Assembly (NCBI RefSeq): GCF_000026545.1
Contig: NC_011601.1
Length of the DNA stretch: 64,000 bases
DNA from: Escherichia coli O127:H6 str. E2348/69
GTDB lineage: Bacteria; Pseudomonadota; Gammaproteobacteria; Enterobacterales; Enterobacteriaceae
Reading direction: 5' to 3' (one strand)
This document shows positions 51,172-64,000 of this stretch, piece after piece (position 1 is the first letter of the stretch; each line of letters opens with the position of its first letter). Position numbers and translations under genes: made by a program. A model generated the notes under the pieces. It ran no database searches. It was not told where the DNA came from and saw only the letters and a program-made list of their open reading frames with translations.

Positions 51172-51962
51172 TTAACGTCCCCTGTGTTACCTTTCGTTTT
51201 ATCACGAGCAATAAGCTGGCTGGCAATAACCATCACCAGCGACAGCACCAGTAATATGGTTGCCAGCGCGTTAACTTCCGGCGATACGCCGACTTTGACC
51301 ATCGAATAAATTTTTAACGGCAGAATTTCATAACTCGGCCCGGTGACAAACGAAGAAACCACCACGTCGTCCATCGACAGGGTAAAGCTTAACACCCAGC
51401 CCGCCGCTACCGCTGGCATTGCCAGAGGCAGAATGATTTTTCGCAGAATGGTAAATTCGCTGGCACCGAGATCTTTCGCCGCTTCCAGCATTCGCACGTC
51501 AAAACCTTTCAGGCGCGAATACACTGTCACCACCACAAATGGCAGGCAGAAGGTGATATGCGAGAACAGCAGCGACCAGAAGCCAAGCTGAATACCCAGC
51601 AGCATAAACAGCACCAGCAGCGAAATCGCCATCACGATATCTGGTGACATCATCACCACAAACAGCATTCCGCTAACGAACGGCTTACCACGAAAGCGAT
51701 AACGGTACAGCGCAACTGCCGTCAGTGAACCGATAAGCGTAGCAAACGTCGCCGAAAACACCGCCATTGTTAGTGAATGCTGCGCTGCCTGTAACAGGCT
51801 GTCGTTGTTCATCAGCAGGCTATACCATTTGGTGGTAAAACCCTGCCAGTTGATGCCAAAGCGCGAGCTGTTAAAGGAGTTCACAATCAAAATAATGATT
51901 GGGATATACAGGTACGCGTAGATAGCGGTCATAAAACCGCCGCGAAGCAGTCGACCGATCAT
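51168..51962 (-). CDS. potC: spermidine/putrescine ABC transporter permease
   Basis: 264-aa ORF with the ABC permease EAA-like motif. Confidence 0.95.
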   Translation of the reverse strand: MIGRLLRGGFMTAIYAYLYIPIIILIVNSFNSSRFGINWQGFTTKWYSLLMNNDSLLQAAQHSLTMAVFSATFATLIGSLTAVALYRYRFRGKPFVSGMLFVVMMSPDIVMAISLLVLFMLLGIQLGFWSLLFSHITFCLPFVVVTVYSRLKGFDVRMLEAAKDLGASEFTILRKIILPLAMPAVAAGWVLSFTLSMDDVVVSSFVTGPSYEILPLKIYSMVKVGVSPEVNALATILLVLSLVMVIASQLIARDKTKGNTGDVK

Positions 51963-52078
51963 TCGAGTTCCACCTTCTTATTCATAAGGCGGGACACTTT
52001 CAGGATTTTGAATTTATTCAATTTTTTCCTTTCTCCAAAATCTCTCCAAAACGTTTCCCCAAAACTAGGCCACGCATT
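51959..52078 (-). pseudogene. potB: 3'-terminal remnant of potB at the prophage junction
   Basis: In-frame codons ...SRLMNKKVELE then TGA overlapping the potC start as in the potABCD operon; no start codon and no permease body upstream, where the integrase gene begins instead. Confidence 0.5.
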
Positions 52079-52128
52079 TTACAACACTTTTTTCCTGAGA
52101 TGGTGACGGATATTCCATATGGTGTTTA

Positions 52129-53247
52129 TCAAATAACCAACTTAACCCATTCCTGACCTCGAGTATCGTTATAGCGATCGGTGGTTGCCTGGACTTTATG
52201 TCCTAGTAATGTTTTTGTATCAATACCCTGTGCACGGTACAGCCGTTCTGATAGAGAGCGTTGTTCATGAAATGTTGGCGGAGTTTTTCCTGCTGGTGGA
52301 ATTATCCCAGCCAGATCCCGTGCTTTGGCAAAGTAGTCGCTCAGGTTGTCTTTACTCATCGGCTTCGGTTGTTTCTGGTGCCGACTATGGATTAGATATG
52401 GACTTAATATTCTGTCTCGGCACCCATCAATAACTTCTTTTAACGTTATCCCAATGGCATCACAGCGTAGTGTAAGCGGTAACGCCAGACGCATTCCGGT
52501 TTTTCCCTGGGTGATATGCAAGTGTTCGTTCCACACATCTGAAAAACGCATGTGGCAAATGTCATCACGGCGCTGACCAGTAACAATCGCAAGAAGCATT
52601 GCGTTACGGATAAAGTGTTTTTCAGGCGTTGCATTGTAAATTTTTTGCCAGTCTTCCATGGTGAGCCTGGCTCTGGTTACTTTAGGGATCGGTTTACGGG
52701 TAGCCTCCGGAGGATTCCATCCAGGAGGAACTTCCCCTGCATGCTGTGCTTCTTTATAAATATCAACCCATAATCCACGATTTACTCTCGCTGTGCTGAC
52801 CATGTCTTTATCCAGCCACTCATCCAGTATTAATGCAAAGTCTCTTACTTCCAGTTCTTTCAATGGGTGGTTTCCCAGACGGGAAACCAGGTATGCAGCC
52901 ATTCGGGTTTTTTCTTTGTGAGTTGTAGCTGCAATATCTCCATTTTTCAGTCGCGTGTCCTGTATTTTCAGATATCGATCAACCCATGCCTTTAATCTGA
53001 TACCCTGACGTTTTGTTGCTGACGGACTTTCATCAATTTTGCGCATGAAATATTCAGCTTCTGCTGCAGCTATTCGCTGATTGGCTGTGGAAGCGATTTT
53101 TTCTGCCTTACCTTTGTCTGTTCCGAGTCCGTGAAATTTTCCAGTCACAGGATTTTTATACTGGTAGTAAACTCTGCCAGTTCTGCGATCAAACTTTTCG
53201 TAAAGACCGGCTACGTCAGTGCTGTTTTTTCGTGGCCTCGGTGACAT
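52129..53247 (-). CDS. int: prophage tyrosine integrase (lambda Int family)
   Basis: 372-aa ORF; C-terminal catalytic region HEQRSLSERLY...LLGHK...RYNDTRGQEW parallels lambda Int. Confidence 0.9.
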   Translation of the reverse strand: MSPRPRKNSTDVAGLYEKFDRRTGRVYYQYKNPVTGKFHGLGTDKGKAEKIASTANQRIAAAEAEYFMRKIDESPSATKRQGIRLKAWVDRYLKIQDTRLKNGDIAATTHKEKTRMAAYLVSRLGNHPLKELEVRDFALILDEWLDKDMVSTARVNRGLWVDIYKEAQHAGEVPPGWNPPEATRKPIPKVTRARLTMEDWQKIYNATPEKHFIRNAMLLAIVTGQRRDDICHMRFSDVWNEHLHITQGKTGMRLALPLTLRCDAIGITLKEVIDGCRDRILSPYLIHSRHQKQPKPMSKDNLSDYFAKARDLAGIIPPAGKTPPTFHEQRSLSERLYRAQGIDTKTLLGHKVQATTDRYNDTRGQEWVKLVI

Positions 53248-53494
53248 GAGTTAAAATCTCCTTCAGTGCATCATCATCGCCAGTATGAATTTCCGGCGCA
53301 ATTCCCGTTTCACCAGGCCCAACAAATACTGCTCGGCGATCTATCAGCCAACGCCCACGAATTTTTTGTGGTCTTGGAACGATGTATCCTAGTTTTCCGT
53401 ATTTCACCAGGGTAGTGTTTGTTATTGGGAGACTGAACCGTTTTGGTTTCCACTCGTCGAGCGTTATCAGGTACTGTTCGCTCATGGCTATCAC
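53216..53494 (-). CDS. xis: prophage excisionase
   Basis: Small ORF overlapping the int start by 32 nt; winged-helix Xis-like sequence (YLITLDEW...); true start may be 53485. Confidence 0.7.
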   Translation of the reverse strand: MIAMSEQYLITLDEWKPKRFSLPITNTTLVKYGKLGYIVPRPQKIRGRWLIDRRAVFVGPGETGIAPEIHTGDDDALKEILTHVTEATKKQH

Positions 53495-53546: not shown

Positions 53547-56018
53547 TTAAAAATCAGCCTGATTCGGGATCAGTTTTTGCCAGATAGCTGAAACGTATTT
53601 TGCCTGGTGACGAGCGTCATCAAGTGCATTATGGCGCTCACCTTCGAATGGAATAGCCGTTCTGGCATCGAAGTCTATGGCTTTCCCCAGCTCAACGATT
53701 GTGCGTACATCGCGATCGTTGTAGTAACGCCACGGGCAGGGGATCCCCTGCCGTTCGTATGAACGGCGCAAAATCGTGTTGTCGAAGTTGGCTCCATTTC
53801 CCCAAACCTGAACAAAAAATTCACCGGAGTTTTCGTCGATAAATTCCCGCAATTGTAACAGTGCATCATCTAACGGGATTTCATCGGTCATAATGGCAGA
53901 TTGCGCTTCGCGTGATTGCTTAAGCCACCATTTAATGGTGTCCCGATCAATGACTCCGCCAGCAGTTTCCAGATCGATAGTCTTACTAAATTCCGGTCCC
54001 ATATCTCCGGTTTGCGGATCGAAAAATATTGCACCTATTGAGATGATCGGGGCATCAGGATTTTTTCCCATGGTTTCAAGGTCGATCATTAGATGGTCAC
54101 ACGTCCTGCTGGTGGATGTGATTTCGTGATGACCGTTCACCTTAATTGAGTGATCTGCCGTCTCGCCAGTCTCATTATCGCTATTGTGATGCTGATTGCC
54201 GCCAGTGTTCTCCTTGTGTGGATGCTCAGCGCCTTCCATTTCCTCCGGATCATCTTCCTGAACTTCAACCTGATACTCTTCATCGAATGTTTCCTGGTAT
54301 GTTGCGTCGCCCATCACCGCACCACAATCAGGGCAGTTGCCGCCGCCGGTCTGACCGCAGGCGGTGCAGACTTTTTCCACTTCCTGTTGCACTACTGGTT
54401 CAGGTAGTTTCGTTTCTGGCTCGTTTTGTTGCGTATTTGGGCTGTTTTGTTCCGCTTTCTGGTCGTTCTGTTCCGTTTCTTGCTGGTTCTGGTTCACAGA
54501 ATCGCGGGTTTCAATCCCCTTCACCCATTTCGGATCATTCGGATCGCTAATCCCTGCAACAAATTCACCACGTGATACTGCAAGCAGTTCATCGGCGTCA
54601 GGCTGGCTGATATTGGCTGCCTGCATAATTTTGTTTACTTCGTCAGCGGTAACTTTTACCGGCCCTGGTTGTGCGGTCGTGTCAGATGCACCAGTATTTT
54701 GTTGTGAACCTGAGTATGTACCGTTTTTGCGGGCGAAATATTCTTCTTTCGTGATTTCAGTAGCCCCTGCAGCCAGTGCCTTATCCAGACCAGAAAGTTT
54801 GTTTGCGCGACCGTATTTTTCGCTATCCTTGTCGGTGAAGAGGAAGTAGAACGGCCCTTCACGCTCTACAGATGGTTCGACTTCCACTTTGCATTCGGTT
54901 TTTTCGTTGTCCGGAATTGCCGTTTCCACTGCATCAGTTTCTGGTACTGGCGACGAGAGAGTATCAGTTGCGCTCTGATTTGTTCCTTCATCTTCAAACA
55001 CGCCCTTTGTAGTCAGGTATTCAGTAATGTATTTGTTCAGTGCCACAGGGTCTTTGTGAATGTCGATCGGACGTTCACGGACAAGGCCAAAAATAGTCTG
55101 GCGGTCGTAGCGAAGGGCATCAGGCTGTTTGCGCATTGATGCCGAGATACGCTTCCAGTCTTCGCGGTAGTTGTCGATAACTTCATTTTTTGCCCAGCGA
55201 TGGATGCTGCCGTCAATGTTTCCGGCATCCACATCACCAGGCCAGAGAGCGTAGGCCAGTTCGTCATCCAGTGTTTTCCATGTCTGCTTGTATTCGCGAT
55301 GAGTGGCAGCAATGACCGGGCTGATTTTTCCTGTTGAATTTTCAGTGTTCTGTTGATTGGCTCTGGCGCGGGCGAGATCAACAACAGACGTGTATTTTCC
55401 GGTTTCCTTGCGTTCACCTTCGCGACGTTTTTTCCAGATGCGCATCTCTGCCTGAATTTCGGGCCATTTGGCACCAGGCTTACATTTATGCTTAACCCAC
55501 CCGATGGCATGCAGCTTAAGCTCCGGATACATGGCGTTAACTTCTGGCATTTTCATCAACGCTTCAACGATATGTCCGTCGAATGTTGCCATGTCTTCCT
55601 GCAACAATTCCTGTGCGCTAATCACCATATCAACGGTGATGTTTTCACATGTGTCGAACTTAACCATGACAGCGTTCTGTACTTCAGGGGCCAGCTTGTC
55701 AAAAGTGACGTTCATCGGATCGGATTCAGTCTCAACCGGGACAAAAGAAGCAGAATCCTCATCCCAGCGGTTTTCCTGCATATATTCAGCATCCCATGAA
55801 TCGAGGGCAGGGCGGGGTATGCCAGGTTTATCCTCGCAGACAATAAATTTATAAGCGCAGTCCTGAGCAGCCGGATAATGTTCCAGGAATTGCCAGTGAA
55901 ATTTTGCTCGAGCACGGCGTTCGTCGCCAGCTTCAATGGCTGTGGCTACAGCCACAGCGCCTTCTTCCCTTGTTGCCAGTTCGTCAGGAATAGCGGCGCA
56001 AATAAAGACTTTACTCAT
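53547..56018 (-). CDS. prophage exonuclease with C-terminal DnaQ-like (DEDDh) 3'-5' exonuclease domain
   Basis: ORF 53547-56054 (alternative start MSKVF at 56018); C-terminus has DLETMG and HNALDDA motifs; central Gln/Asn/Glu-rich linker and a Cys4 cluster CTACGQTGGGNCPDCG. Confidence 0.7.
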   Translation of the reverse strand: MSKVFICAAIPDELATREEGAVAVATAIEAGDERRARAKFHWQFLEHYPAAQDCAYKFIVCEDKPGIPRPALDSWDAEYMQENRWDEDSASFVPVETESDPMNVTFDKLAPEVQNAVMVKFDTCENITVDMVISAQELLQEDMATFDGHIVEALMKMPEVNAMYPELKLHAIGWVKHKCKPGAKWPEIQAEMRIWKKRREGERKETGKYTSVVDLARARANQQNTENSTGKISPVIAATHREYKQTWKTLDDELAYALWPGDVDAGNIDGSIHRWAKNEVIDNYREDWKRISASMRKQPDALRYDRQTIFGLVRERPIDIHKDPVALNKYITEYLTTKGVFEDEGTNQSATDTLSSPVPETDAVETAIPDNEKTECKVEVEPSVEREGPFYFLFTDKDSEKYGRANKLSGLDKALAAGATEITKEEYFARKNGTYSGSQQNTGASDTTAQPGPVKVTADEVNKIMQAANISQPDADELLAVSRGEFVAGISDPNDPKWVKGIETRDSVNQNQQETEQNDQKAEQNSPNTQQNEPETKLPEPVVQQEVEKVCTACGQTGGGNCPDCGAVMGDATYQETFDEEYQVEVQEDDPEEMEGAEHPHKENTGGNQHHNSDNETGETADHSIKVNGHHEITSTSRTCDHLMIDLETMGKNPDAPIISIGAIFFDPQTGDMGPEFSKTIDLETAGGVIDRDTIKWWLKQSREAQSAIMTDEIPLDDALLQLREFIDENSGEFFVQVWGNGANFDNTILRRSYERQGIPCPWRYYNDRDVRTIVELGKAIDFDARTAIPFEGERHNALDDARHQAKYVSAIWQKLIPNQADF

Positions 56019-56110
56019 TTGTTTTAACCTCATGACAGATTTAAGGATGAACAAATCCCTGCCATTGCTGGCATATAAGAATGAAACCGGATATTTATTA
56101 CGGAACTGTT

Positions 56111-56302
56111 TTAAAGACCTGCCGGGATTTCGATATTATCCTGGTGAATAACTTTATCGACCGGGTAACAGTTACCGGGAATTTTCTGTTCGGTTGCTGC
56201 AGTCATACACTACTGCATTGTCCTGTGAACACTGACTGCAATATCAACTGGCTCTCCGGAAACAAGAAAAACTGTCAGAACAAGCACAAATGCTGAATTC
56301 AT
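56111..56302 (-). pseudogene. ydfD: ydfD-like lysis-protein gene interrupted by an in-frame amber codon
   Basis: MNSAFVLVLTVFLVSGEPVDIAVSVHRTMQ then TAG, then the frame continues CMTAATEQKIPGNCYPVDKVIHQDNIEIPAGL; total length equals a 63-aa gene; start overlaps the dicB stop as ATGA. Confidence 0.6.
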
Positions 56303-56487
56303 TGTGCACATCCTTTTGGCATCAGACGTAAACGAGCCAGCATTGAAACAATGCATATTTTATTTAATAGCTCCCGTTCTTGTTTTCTCTTGTTAATGGC
56401 ATCTTCAGTAAATACTGGGTTACTGATAGTGACACCAATTTCAAAACAACCTTCAGACGTATTAACGTTTGGTAATAACGTTTTCAT
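56299..56487 (-). CDS. dicB: cell-division inhibitor DicB
   Basis: 62 aa from internal Met (MKTLLPNVNTSEGCFEIGVTISNPVFTEDAINKRKQERELLNKICIVSMLARLRLMPKGCAQ); lies downstream of dicF in the dicA-side operon. Confidence 0.75.
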   Translation of the reverse strand: MKTLLPNVNTSEGCFEIGVTISNPVFTEDAINKRKQERELLNKICIVSMLARLRLMPKGCAQ

Positions 56488-56656: not shown

Positions 56657-56714
56657 AAAAAGGGCGGCAGAGCAGTCACGGAGTAAAACTGATACCGCCA
56701 AACGTCACCAGAAA
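56657..56714 (-). ncRNA. dicF: DicF small RNA
   Basis: Minus-strand sequence TTTCTGGTGACGTTTGGCGGTATCAGTTTTACTCCGTGACTGCTCTGCCGCCCTTTTT matches the recalled DicF sequence including its terminator hairpin and U-tail. Confidence 0.75.
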
Positions 56715-63121: not shown

Positions 63122-64000
63122 ATGAAAAGACTATATTATACCCATCATGATAGTCGAACCTTAAAACTTGCTATAGAAGGTGATGTTTCTGATAATGCGA
63201 ATATTTTTACAGTAATTGTAGGTAAAAATGGCGTTGGAAAAAGCAGATTGTTATCTCAGATTGCTAAAGACTGTATTCAAGATATTCATTTCTTGAAAAC
63301 TTTTAATCCATTATTTGACAGAGAAATAACACCAAAGTTAATTGCCGTATCTACCAGCCCATTCGATAAATTCCCTCCAGGGCGTAGGTCATTAAATCAC
63401 CAAAGGAAAGAAAATAATTATCGCTATGTGGGTATGCGTGGAGAAGGCCCCTTCGGCGTATCAAATGCCGTATCCCTTTTATCTTCAGCAGCGAGAGGTT
63501 GGCTAGAGAAACTTGCTTATTCAGAAAATCCTGCAAATTTACTCGATGTTTTTCATTCTATTGATTTTGAGCCCCATATAGAGTTTGTATTTAAACCAAC
63601 TTACAACGGACCGGACACTCCTGACTATAACTTCATTGGTGTATATTCAGATGAGATATTAACGGAAGTTAAGGAGTTATATTTAAAATACAATATAAAA
63701 ATTGACAGGAAGAATATTGAGAGTCTCTTAAAGTTAAACTCCGAATCACGTCATGATATTTACGAAGCACTGGTTGAAATTAATCGATTTGAACCTGAAC
63801 GTAGGGCTGTAACCTTGTCAGTCGATTTTACCAATGGTGAAACATTGGTTGGCTCGACTTATGCGAATAATTATTTTTCTAGATCAATTCTTAAACTTAT
63901 GAACGCTGGCTTCATGAGATTGATGGATATGCGACTCATAAAAAAAAGCTATGGTCCCATGTCACTTAAACGTGCGAGCTCGGGAGAACAATGTTTATTA
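63122..64000 (+). CDS. ABC-type (AAA_15/AAA_21/OLD-like) ATPase, N-terminal 293 codons; runs off the window end
   Basis: Open frame from the ATG at 63122 with no stop to 64000 (absent from the ORF track for that reason); Walker A VIVGKNGVGKSRLL near residue 33; ABC-signature-like SSGEQ at the last codons; AT-rich. Confidence 0.7.
   Translation, partial: MKRLYYTHHDSRTLKLAIEGDVSDNANIFTVIVGKNGVGKSRLLSQIAKDCIQDIHFLKTFNPLFDREITPKLIAVSTSPFDKFPPGRRSLNHQRKENNYRYVGMRGEGPFGVSNAVSLLSSAARGWLEKLAYSENPANLLDVFHSIDFEPHIEFVFKPTYNGPDTPDYNFIGVYSDEILTEVKELYLKYNIKIDRKNIESLLKLNSESRHDIYEALVEINRFEPERRAVTLSVDFTNGETLVGSTYANNYFSRSILKLMNAGFMRLMDMRLIKKSYGPMSLKRASSGEQCLL

Follow-up and report, generated by a model that had tools for sequence, protein, structure and literature searches.

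The window analysed here is a stretch of 64,000 nucleotides from Escherichia coli O127:H6 str. E2348/69 (assembly GCF_000026545.1, contig NC_011601.1), and it carries on its minus strand, at 53547-56018, a prophage gene encoding an exonuclease-like protein of 823 amino acids. Residues 642 to 823 of this protein form a DEDDh nuclease domain with a complete catalytic set, placed behind a long scaffold, part of which is homologous to RecE of the Rac prophage. Judged from the alignments, the DEDDh domain occupies exactly the place held by the 5'-3' PD-(D/E)XK nuclease of RecE in near-identical proteins. We see a roughly even chance that the product is a nuclease of modular build, belonging to the early-left (recombination) region of a Qin-like lambdoid prophage and trimming DNA 3' ends without a cognate annealase. 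The gene itself is ordinary and known, being among the most widespread of E. coli prophage genes.

The C-terminal nuclease module

An initial annotation, made from the letters of this DNA, had proposed a DEDDh, DnaQ-like exonuclease at the C-terminus, on the basis of the motifs DLETMG and HNALDDA. This was borne out. The last 182 amino acids match Pfam family PF16473 (Rv2179c-like 3'-5' exoribonuclease domain) with 228.3 bits (E 7e-68, gathering cut-off 27), covering positions 2-177 of the 177 in the model, and the match to RNase_T is weak. The two motifs lie at residues 645-651 (IDLETMG) and 796-802 (HNALDDA). When the protein was aligned with T4 DexA, with the free-standing homologue of phage SKA5 and with the C-terminal part of a protein from a Citrobacter phage, its residues D646, E648, D746, H796 and D801 fall column by column on D7, E9, D119, H186 and D191 of DexA, so that the catalytic set, whose completeness the initial annotation had left to be checked by alignment, lacks none of its five residues. 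The DexA set was taken from PMC12153337, where the second residue is printed as E12; we took it as E9, read from the DexA sequence FIIDFETMG. Three of the five are invariant in a 10-sequence alignment of homologues, and the other two are at least 90% conserved. T4 DexA is the sole PDB relative detected by sequence (E 1.4e-6); the profile search of the PDB gave no homologue beyond it, the next match (E 0.034) being a chain of DnaQ, and none of the chains listed bore the name Rv2179c. By kinship, the domain is predicted to act as a 3'-5' exonuclease on DNA 3' ends. The features concerned are the following; residue numbers are those of the 823-amino-acid protein, and the codon coordinates were checked.

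53550-54095, minus strand: DEDDh 3'-5' exonuclease domain (predicted), residues 642-823, PF16473, DexA/Rv2179c-like
54081-54083, minus strand: codon of D646, catalytic
54075-54077, minus strand: codon of E648, catalytic
53781-53783, minus strand: codon of D746, catalytic
53631-53633, minus strand: codon of H796, catalytic
53616-53618, minus strand: codon of D801, catalytic

The family to which the domain belongs has members in 1620 of 50,697 phage records; most of them are free-standing exonucleases of ~170-230 amino acids. One of these is the ~190-amino-acid domain of Escherichia phage SKA5 (L008:4998-5571), 61% identical to that of the window, whose gene follows ea22, the phage being e14-like; in the record, a frameshift splits this gene into two coding sequences. 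A different departure was seen in P0230 (residues 565-752), a DEDDh-type representative in which the catalytic Glu has become Lys (VDLKTMG) and the second Asp has become Ala (SFANV), and whose domain may be an inactive derivative.

The proposed comparison with RecE, which the initial annotation had listed among the domain searches to be made, brought out what that annotation had not seen: the homology of residues 262-625, Cys4 cluster included, to Rac RecE, the nature of residues 1-256 as an intact ydfE, and the exchangeable C-terminus. Residues 262-625 align with residues 278-591 of Rac RecE (BLASTP E 8e-61) with 40% identity overall, rising to ~80% over the last 150 amino acids of the matched region, which include the Cys4 cluster and the acidic linker with near-identical flanks. 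The similarity ends at RecE residue 591, just short of the crystallised nuclease domain (RecE 606-866), and no Pfam match to the RecE PD-(D/E)XK domain PF12684 was found in the window protein. The NCBIfam RecE equivalog NF007259 scores 271.7 bits against a cut-off of 1269, over model positions 260-602 only. Close E. coli homologues of 900 amino acids, with a scaffold 93-95% identical, carry PF12684 where the window protein has PF16473. At the DNA level, alignment with one such PD-(D/E)XK locus (L006) shows strong similarity as far as the codons of ...ETGETADHSI (residue ~625, nucleotide ~54144) and none beyond. It is these alignments that place the DEDDh domain precisely where RecE has its nuclease.

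How often this happens was read from a HMMER scan with residues 1-470 across 1.84 billion representatives, which gave 187 relatives; the C-terminal modules were counted in 57 long ones, the window protein included. A DEDDh domain ends 8 of the 57, a PD-(D/E)XK domain 11, and a domain with the motif KKSLTDAxKKALSxLGFSADV, the Rad52-like module, 21; a fourth domain, of unknown kind, is present in 8, and the remaining 9, with nothing recognisable at the C-terminus, are probably truncated. The Rad52-like assignment was settled by structure comparison only, individual Pfam matches being sub-threshold (E 0.02-0.1) and a sequence-profile search of the PDB with this domain giving no match. A DEDDh domain is fused to the scaffold repeatedly, in 8 representative clusters (50% identity) whose N-terminal types and genera vary. 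The fourth module (…YQQQLTIAALHGLCANPA…, phrog_26058) was seen in P0125, P0217, P0232, P0259, P0264 and P0266 and at locus L011:5001-7109; neither a nuclease nor an annealase signature is present in these proteins, and the gene in L011 has no recombination gene as a neighbour.

Downstream, the genes vary with the module. Next after PD-(D/E)XK versions stands recT, in Rac of K-12, L006, L021 and L022; DEDDh versions are followed directly by xis and int, or by int, in the window, mEp460, Tritos, PPompW, vB_EcoS-689R5, Citrobacter phage Chris1 and the loci of P0237, P0254 and P0141; and Rad52-fused versions by a Sipho_Gp157 gene. Across the 9 DEDDh-type locus types examined, no annealase gene adjoins the exonuclease gene, and neither recT nor ralR nor rcbA follows the gene of the window. 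Because the downstream genes track the C-terminal module, the unit of exchange, as read from gene order, is the PD-(D/E)XK domain together with recT (plus ral/rcbA in E. coli) against the DEDDh domain alone. All versions of the scaffold sit between kil and xis/int, where Rac keeps its recombination genes, and lambda has its own at the same position.

Other parts of the gene also seem to move. In the 813-amino-acid protein of phage vB_EcoS-689R5 (L013:2672-5113), only the linker, Cys4 and DEDDh part is common to the window protein (synonymous divergence, dS, ~0.01-0.2), its first ~470 amino acids being highly diverged (dS >1.5). This patchy divergence is a further sign of independent shuffling of gene segments.

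The N-terminal scaffold

Residues 1-625 constitute a non-catalytic scaffold of three folded domains and a Cys4 knuckle, joined by long acidic or Gln/Asn-rich disordered linkers. Its parts, with the confidence of the AlphaFold2 model (predicted local distance difference test, pLDDT) where it applies, are:

55404-56018, minus strand: folded alpha/beta plus helical N-terminal domain of YdfE_N type, residues 1-205, pLDDT mostly >94
54999-55280, minus strand: helical core domain, residues 247-340, from AlphaFold2 helices at pLDDT 94-98 and the RecE alignment
54714-54866, minus strand: small beta/alpha domain, residues 385-435, pLDDT 93-96, with disordered acidic flanks <50
54504-54608, minus strand: segment ...LLAVSRGEFVAGISDPNDPKWVKGIETR, residues 471-505, near-identical in Rac RecE
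54369-54503, minus strand: Gln/Asn/Glu-rich low-complexity linker, residues 506-550, delimited by composition
54321-54368, minus strand: Cys4 cluster CTACGQTGGGNCPDCG, residues 551-566, putative zinc knuckle or ribbon, common to Rac RecE
54096-54320, minus strand: acidic, His-rich linker, residues 567-641, rich in Glu, Thr, Asp and His, net charge -17

The N-terminal domain (residues 1-205) and the K-12 Qin pseudogene ydfE share 98% identity, a figure that also holds over residues 1-256, after which the K-12 copy is cut by IS2E. The helical core, with a conserved motif around A276, recurs in almost every scaffold relative, Rac RecE having it from residue ~278 onward, and a middle segment (residues 261-470) is present in most of the 56 long representatives. 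The names YdfE_N and YdfE_C come from precomputed Pfam matches (PF27430 YdfE_N, PF27432 YdfE_C and PF16473) on the cluster representative P0001, 97-98% identical to the window protein and standing for 23,183 member sequences; the two YdfE domains are recorded for P0001 and for relatives.

A CxxC...CxxC cluster and a low-complexity linker ahead of the nuclease had already been pointed out in the initial annotation, and both are there. The cysteines are spaced C551-x2-C554-x7-C562-x2-C565, and the grouping of 4 of the 12 cysteines of the protein within 15 residues was reached in 141 of 20000 shuffles (0.7%). The low-complexity character applies to two stretches, one on each side of the cluster: residues 506-550 (Q 22%, E 18%, N 13%) and the acidic linker of residues 567-641.

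Gene limits, prophage context and distribution

The gene had initially been placed at 53547-56054. The open reading frame is indeed uninterrupted over this interval on the minus strand (835 codons counted from a TTG), and it is the start that has to be moved, 36 nucleotides further in, to an ATG at 56018. This ATG is the likely start codon, since a GAGG lies ~10 nucleotides 5' of it, the RefSeq coding sequence begins there, and the PHROG 2082 profile, which matches over its full length, begins at residue 13 of the frame counted from the TTG. The resulting product is identical to WP_000048294.1 of E. coli E2348/69, named '3'-5' exonuclease' in RefSeq; at the DNA level, the window agrees with the E2348/69 chromosome NZ_CP059840.2 at 100% identity. 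An internal start at M644, which would give a free DEDDh domain, was considered and rejected, the nearest AGGA being ~14 nucleotides upstream and too distant. A scan for promoters and terminators around the gene returned signals at or below chance level.

53547-56018, minus strand: complete coding sequence, 823 amino acids plus stop (stop codon 53547-53549), the likely gene, identical to WP_000048294.1 and matched by PHROG 2082 over its full length
56019-56054, minus strand: in-frame TTG extension of 12 codons, probably untranslated, RefSeq and the PHROG profile both starting at the ATG
53216-53485, minus strand: excisionase gene, directly downstream, with no recT or annealase gene between
52129-53247, minus strand: integrase gene, at the prophage end beside potC
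56111-56302, minus strand: ydfD pseudogene, directly upstream of the exonuclease gene
56299-56487, minus strand: dicB, upstream, in the order of the K-12 Qin dicB operon

The prophage, of ~40 kb, is inserted between potB and potC. The local order (DicA-like repressor, ydfA, ydfB, ydfC, DicF RNA, dicB, ydfD, exonuclease, xis, int, potC) is the same arrangement as dicA-ydfABC-dicF-dicB-ydfD-ydfE-int in K-12 Qin. That no annealase gene is evident nearby, and that the arrangement is not of the lambda Exo/Bet kind, had also been anticipated: the protein has no 5'-3' exonuclease fold, no annealase is annotated beside the gene, and none (RecT, Red-beta, Erf, Sak or Rad52-like) appears in the RefSeq annotation of the whole ~40-kb prophage, small unannotated reading frames not having been scanned with profiles. 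A RusA resolvase is annotated in the prophage.

Several neighbours were recorded in passing. The lysis gene ydfD has an internal stop in E2348/69 and is intact in K-12, Tritos and mEp460. The antisense small RNA DicF is full length at 56662-56713 (minus strand), between ydfC and dicB (Rfam RF00039, 76.7 bits against a gathering threshold of 48). The potABCD operon is split by the prophage (51962-52129; L009:8116-9793), with 167 bp between the integrase gene's end and the start of potC. A Septu pair is present in the prophage as well (loci L001:560-1933 and L009:36602-37237): PtuA, an AAA ATPase (PADLOC E 1.9e-165) at ~63122-64000 on the minus strand, runs off the end of the window, and PtuB, an HNH protein (PADLOC E 1.1e-83), lies just outside it; the pair adjoins a DUF5677 gene and an integrase pseudogene.

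The gene is one of the commonest in E. coli prophages: of 5426 complete E. coli genomes, 3488 have it at a coverage of at least 80%, and 4047 (75%) have DNA of the DEDDh domain, with up to 7 copies per genome and 8150 E. coli places in all. It is already catalogued (Pfam YdfE_N/YdfE_C, PHROG 2082) and annotated in thousands of genomes, RefSeq naming many copies '3'-5' exoribonuclease'. Most of the gene is carried by 17 phage records, and phage records deposited as complete genomes hold it intact. Pairwise ratios of nonsynonymous to synonymous divergence (dN/dS) against mEp460, Tritos and 689R5 were 0.06-0.34 in most comparisons of folded segments; values of 0.5-0.55 in the 689R5 comparison come from tiny counts, the DEDDh segment having three substitutions only. 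Divergence is uneven along the gene, which indicates mosaicism.

Possible functions and relation to known systems

The most economical reading of these data is DNA-end trimming, to which, as said above, we give about as much credence as doubt. Upon prophage induction, a leftward operon under DicA-type repression would be switched on, and the gene transcribed from it along with dicB and ydfD, before xis and int. The scaffold may then carry its tethered nuclease to a partner or DNA site also used by RecE and by the Rad52-fused relatives, where the DEDDh domain would remove nucleotides at 3'-OH ends by two-metal hydrolysis. Such 3'-end trimming, or resection, of DNA ends would resemble the part that DexA plays when T4 repairs double-strand breaks and scavenges DNA. 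On this view the protein is not the 5'-3' partner of an annealase but would act without a cognate one, and any outcome in recombination would depend on the host's own functions or on 5' overhangs annealing spontaneously. A RecT-type annealase cannot be supplied in the usual manner by a 3'-5' activity, and the loss of recT agrees with this. For XthA-dependent in vivo cloning in E. coli, Nozaki and Niki (2019) are reported to have shown that 3' resection can support short-homology annealing without a phage annealase.

A number of points weigh against DNA-end trimming. The 5' overhangs left by 3'-5' resection are not known to be a substrate of RecA or of the known phage annealases, which leaves a recombination role without a known pathway except XthA-type end joining. 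Both the substrate (DNA or RNA) and the polarity are deduced from family membership only, and PF16473 takes its name from an exoribonuclease. With a summed net charge of about -62, the scaffold is strongly acidic, a point against its binding DNA directly. None of the 56 diverse long relatives examined has the Cys4 cluster, which is therefore not essential to the family. Disrupted copies exist, by IS2 in K-12 and by a frameshift in PPompW. Finally, no biochemical or genetic characterisation of the protein was found in the searchable literature.

Among the other explanations, a superinfection-exclusion or defence nuclease, degrading incoming phage DNA such as the hydroxymethylcytosine DNA of T-even phages, is an unlikely one. 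It has been proposed for EcD, a plasmid-borne E. coli DexA homologue of the 'HREX' type that digests T4 DNA and protects against T4, and bacterial DexA homologues are commonest in Escherichia (PMC12153337). The window domain is itself a DexA homologue, present in three quarters of complete E. coli genomes, and a Septu system lies in the same prophage. However, the HREX residues are not kept, W152 being replaced by Tyr and D169 by Ala, with D90 retained as D718; EcD, domain-sized and starting with MIDTET, is unlike an 823-amino-acid protein; and PADLOC-DB v2 gave 0 families at E <= 0.1 for the exonuclease. DicB of the same operon protects against some phages; the K-12 dicB operon is repressed in the lysogen, and if this one is alike, the protein would be absent when a phage arrives. 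Moreover, what the domain has displaced is a recombination nuclease, on a scaffold of recombination proteins. A further possibility is an action on RNA or oligonucleotides like that of Rv2179c, be it in transcript processing and decay, in nanoRNA removal, or in anti-defence by destroying nucleotide immune signals. We find this slightly harder to credit than defence: the top Pfam family takes its name from the Mycobacterium tuberculosis 3'-5' exoribonuclease and many RefSeq copies bear a corresponding name, but the only solved relative found by sequence is a DNA exonuclease, the domain is exchanged with a double-stranded DNA exonuclease on a scaffold whose other fusions are to DNA annealases, and no neighbour suggests RNA metabolism, DicF being also upstream in loci without the C-terminus of this gene.

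It may also be asked whether the hybrid does anything, illegitimate or linker-mediated recombination having swapped the RecE nuclease and recT for an unrelated phage exonuclease, and the product hitch-hiking with successful prophages. The sharp junction inside a low-complexity linker, the frequent disruption of copies (IS2 in K-12, the frameshift in PPompW, many 'partial' entries) and the catalytic substitutions of some relatives (E to K and D to A in P0230) are what such a functionless mosaic would leave. Yet the fusion has recurred in 8 clusters at 50% identity with differing N-termini and genera, catalytic residues are kept in most DEDDh-type representatives, most comparisons of folded segments give dN/dS <1, and phage records deposited as complete hold the gene intact. 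Given this recurrence, conservation and presence in complete phage records, a functionless mosaic is unlikely, and we regard it as the least probable of the explanations.

Beyond DNA-end trimming by this one protein, it is conceivable, although we hold the idea doubtful, that the N-terminal region of RecE and YdfE is a portable hub that brings exchangeable effectors for DNA ends to a single target in the cell, the same for all. These effectors would be the PD-(D/E)XK 5'-3' nuclease, the DEDDh 3'-5' nuclease, the Rad52-fold annealase and the fourth, unknown domain. The DEDDh version, present in 75% of E. coli genomes, would then be a distinct, annealase-independent, single-protein system for processing DNA ends, possibly a third type of lambdoid recombination module, working by 3' resection, or a nuclease against competitor or host DNA. 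That the N-terminal part of RecE recurs with four different C-terminal modules of DNA metabolism, recT being kept only by the PD-(D/E)XK version, provides a concrete handle on the role of the RecE N-terminus. According to the passage of PMC11611040 that cites Fu et al. 2012, this part of RecE is needed for efficient linear-linear recombineering. The same comparison calls for caution with the common label 'exodeoxyribonuclease VIII' for such proteins, and with 'exonuclease' for the Rad52-fused relatives.

With respect to known systems, the gene shares its lambdoid map position with recombinases of the lambda Exo/Bet type, and its scaffold family includes true two-component members (RecE with RecT), but the window protein has no 5'-3' exonuclease fold and its prophage no annotated annealase gene. 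YdfE, the K-12 Qin pseudogene b1577, is 98% identical over residues 1-256 and stands in the same operon order; the K-12 copy ends after residue 256 at IS2E with nothing downstream, whereas the window gene is intact. Rv2179c of M. tuberculosis, founder of PF16473, belongs to the same Pfam family as the window domain; it is a single-domain bacterial exoribonuclease. T4 DexA (exonuclease A; PDB 8KEL/8KEN) is phage-encoded like the window protein and has all five catalytic residues in common with the window domain, at 27% identity; it is a free-standing protein of 227 amino acids with extra loops rather than the C-terminus of one of 823, and its 5-hydroxymethylcytosine contacts W152 and D169 are Y and A in the window protein. 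Its roles in T4 include the scavenging of host DNA as well as intron homing (PMC12153337). EcD and the other 'HREX' homologues described in the same paper are also DexA-like DEDDh domains in E. coli genomes; EcD differs by its domain size and its MIDTET start (judged from primers), and the HREX signature, W152 and D169 kept and the tetramer D90 lost, differs at all three positions from the Tyr, Ala and Asp of the window protein. Exact-match scans of IMG/VR with the gene-specific part of either primer gave no match to EcD (HAK9828821.1), for which codon optimisation or misparsing of the primers may account.

The closest comparison remains RecE itself (exodeoxyribonuclease VIII, Rac, K-12). The two proteins differ in their nucleases, a PD-(D/E)XK 5'-3' enzyme in RecE and an unrelated DEDDh domain, predicted to be 3'-5', in the window protein; in their N-termini, of PF06630 type in RecE and of YdfE_N type over the first ~260 amino acids here; and in what follows, cognate recT, ralR and rcbA for RecE and xis directly for the window gene. 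They share the region of residues ~262-625 with its Cys4 cluster and acidic linker, the same genomic slot between kil/dicB-type genes and xis-int, and the same plan of a long non-catalytic N-terminus, a disordered linker and a C-terminal nuclease.

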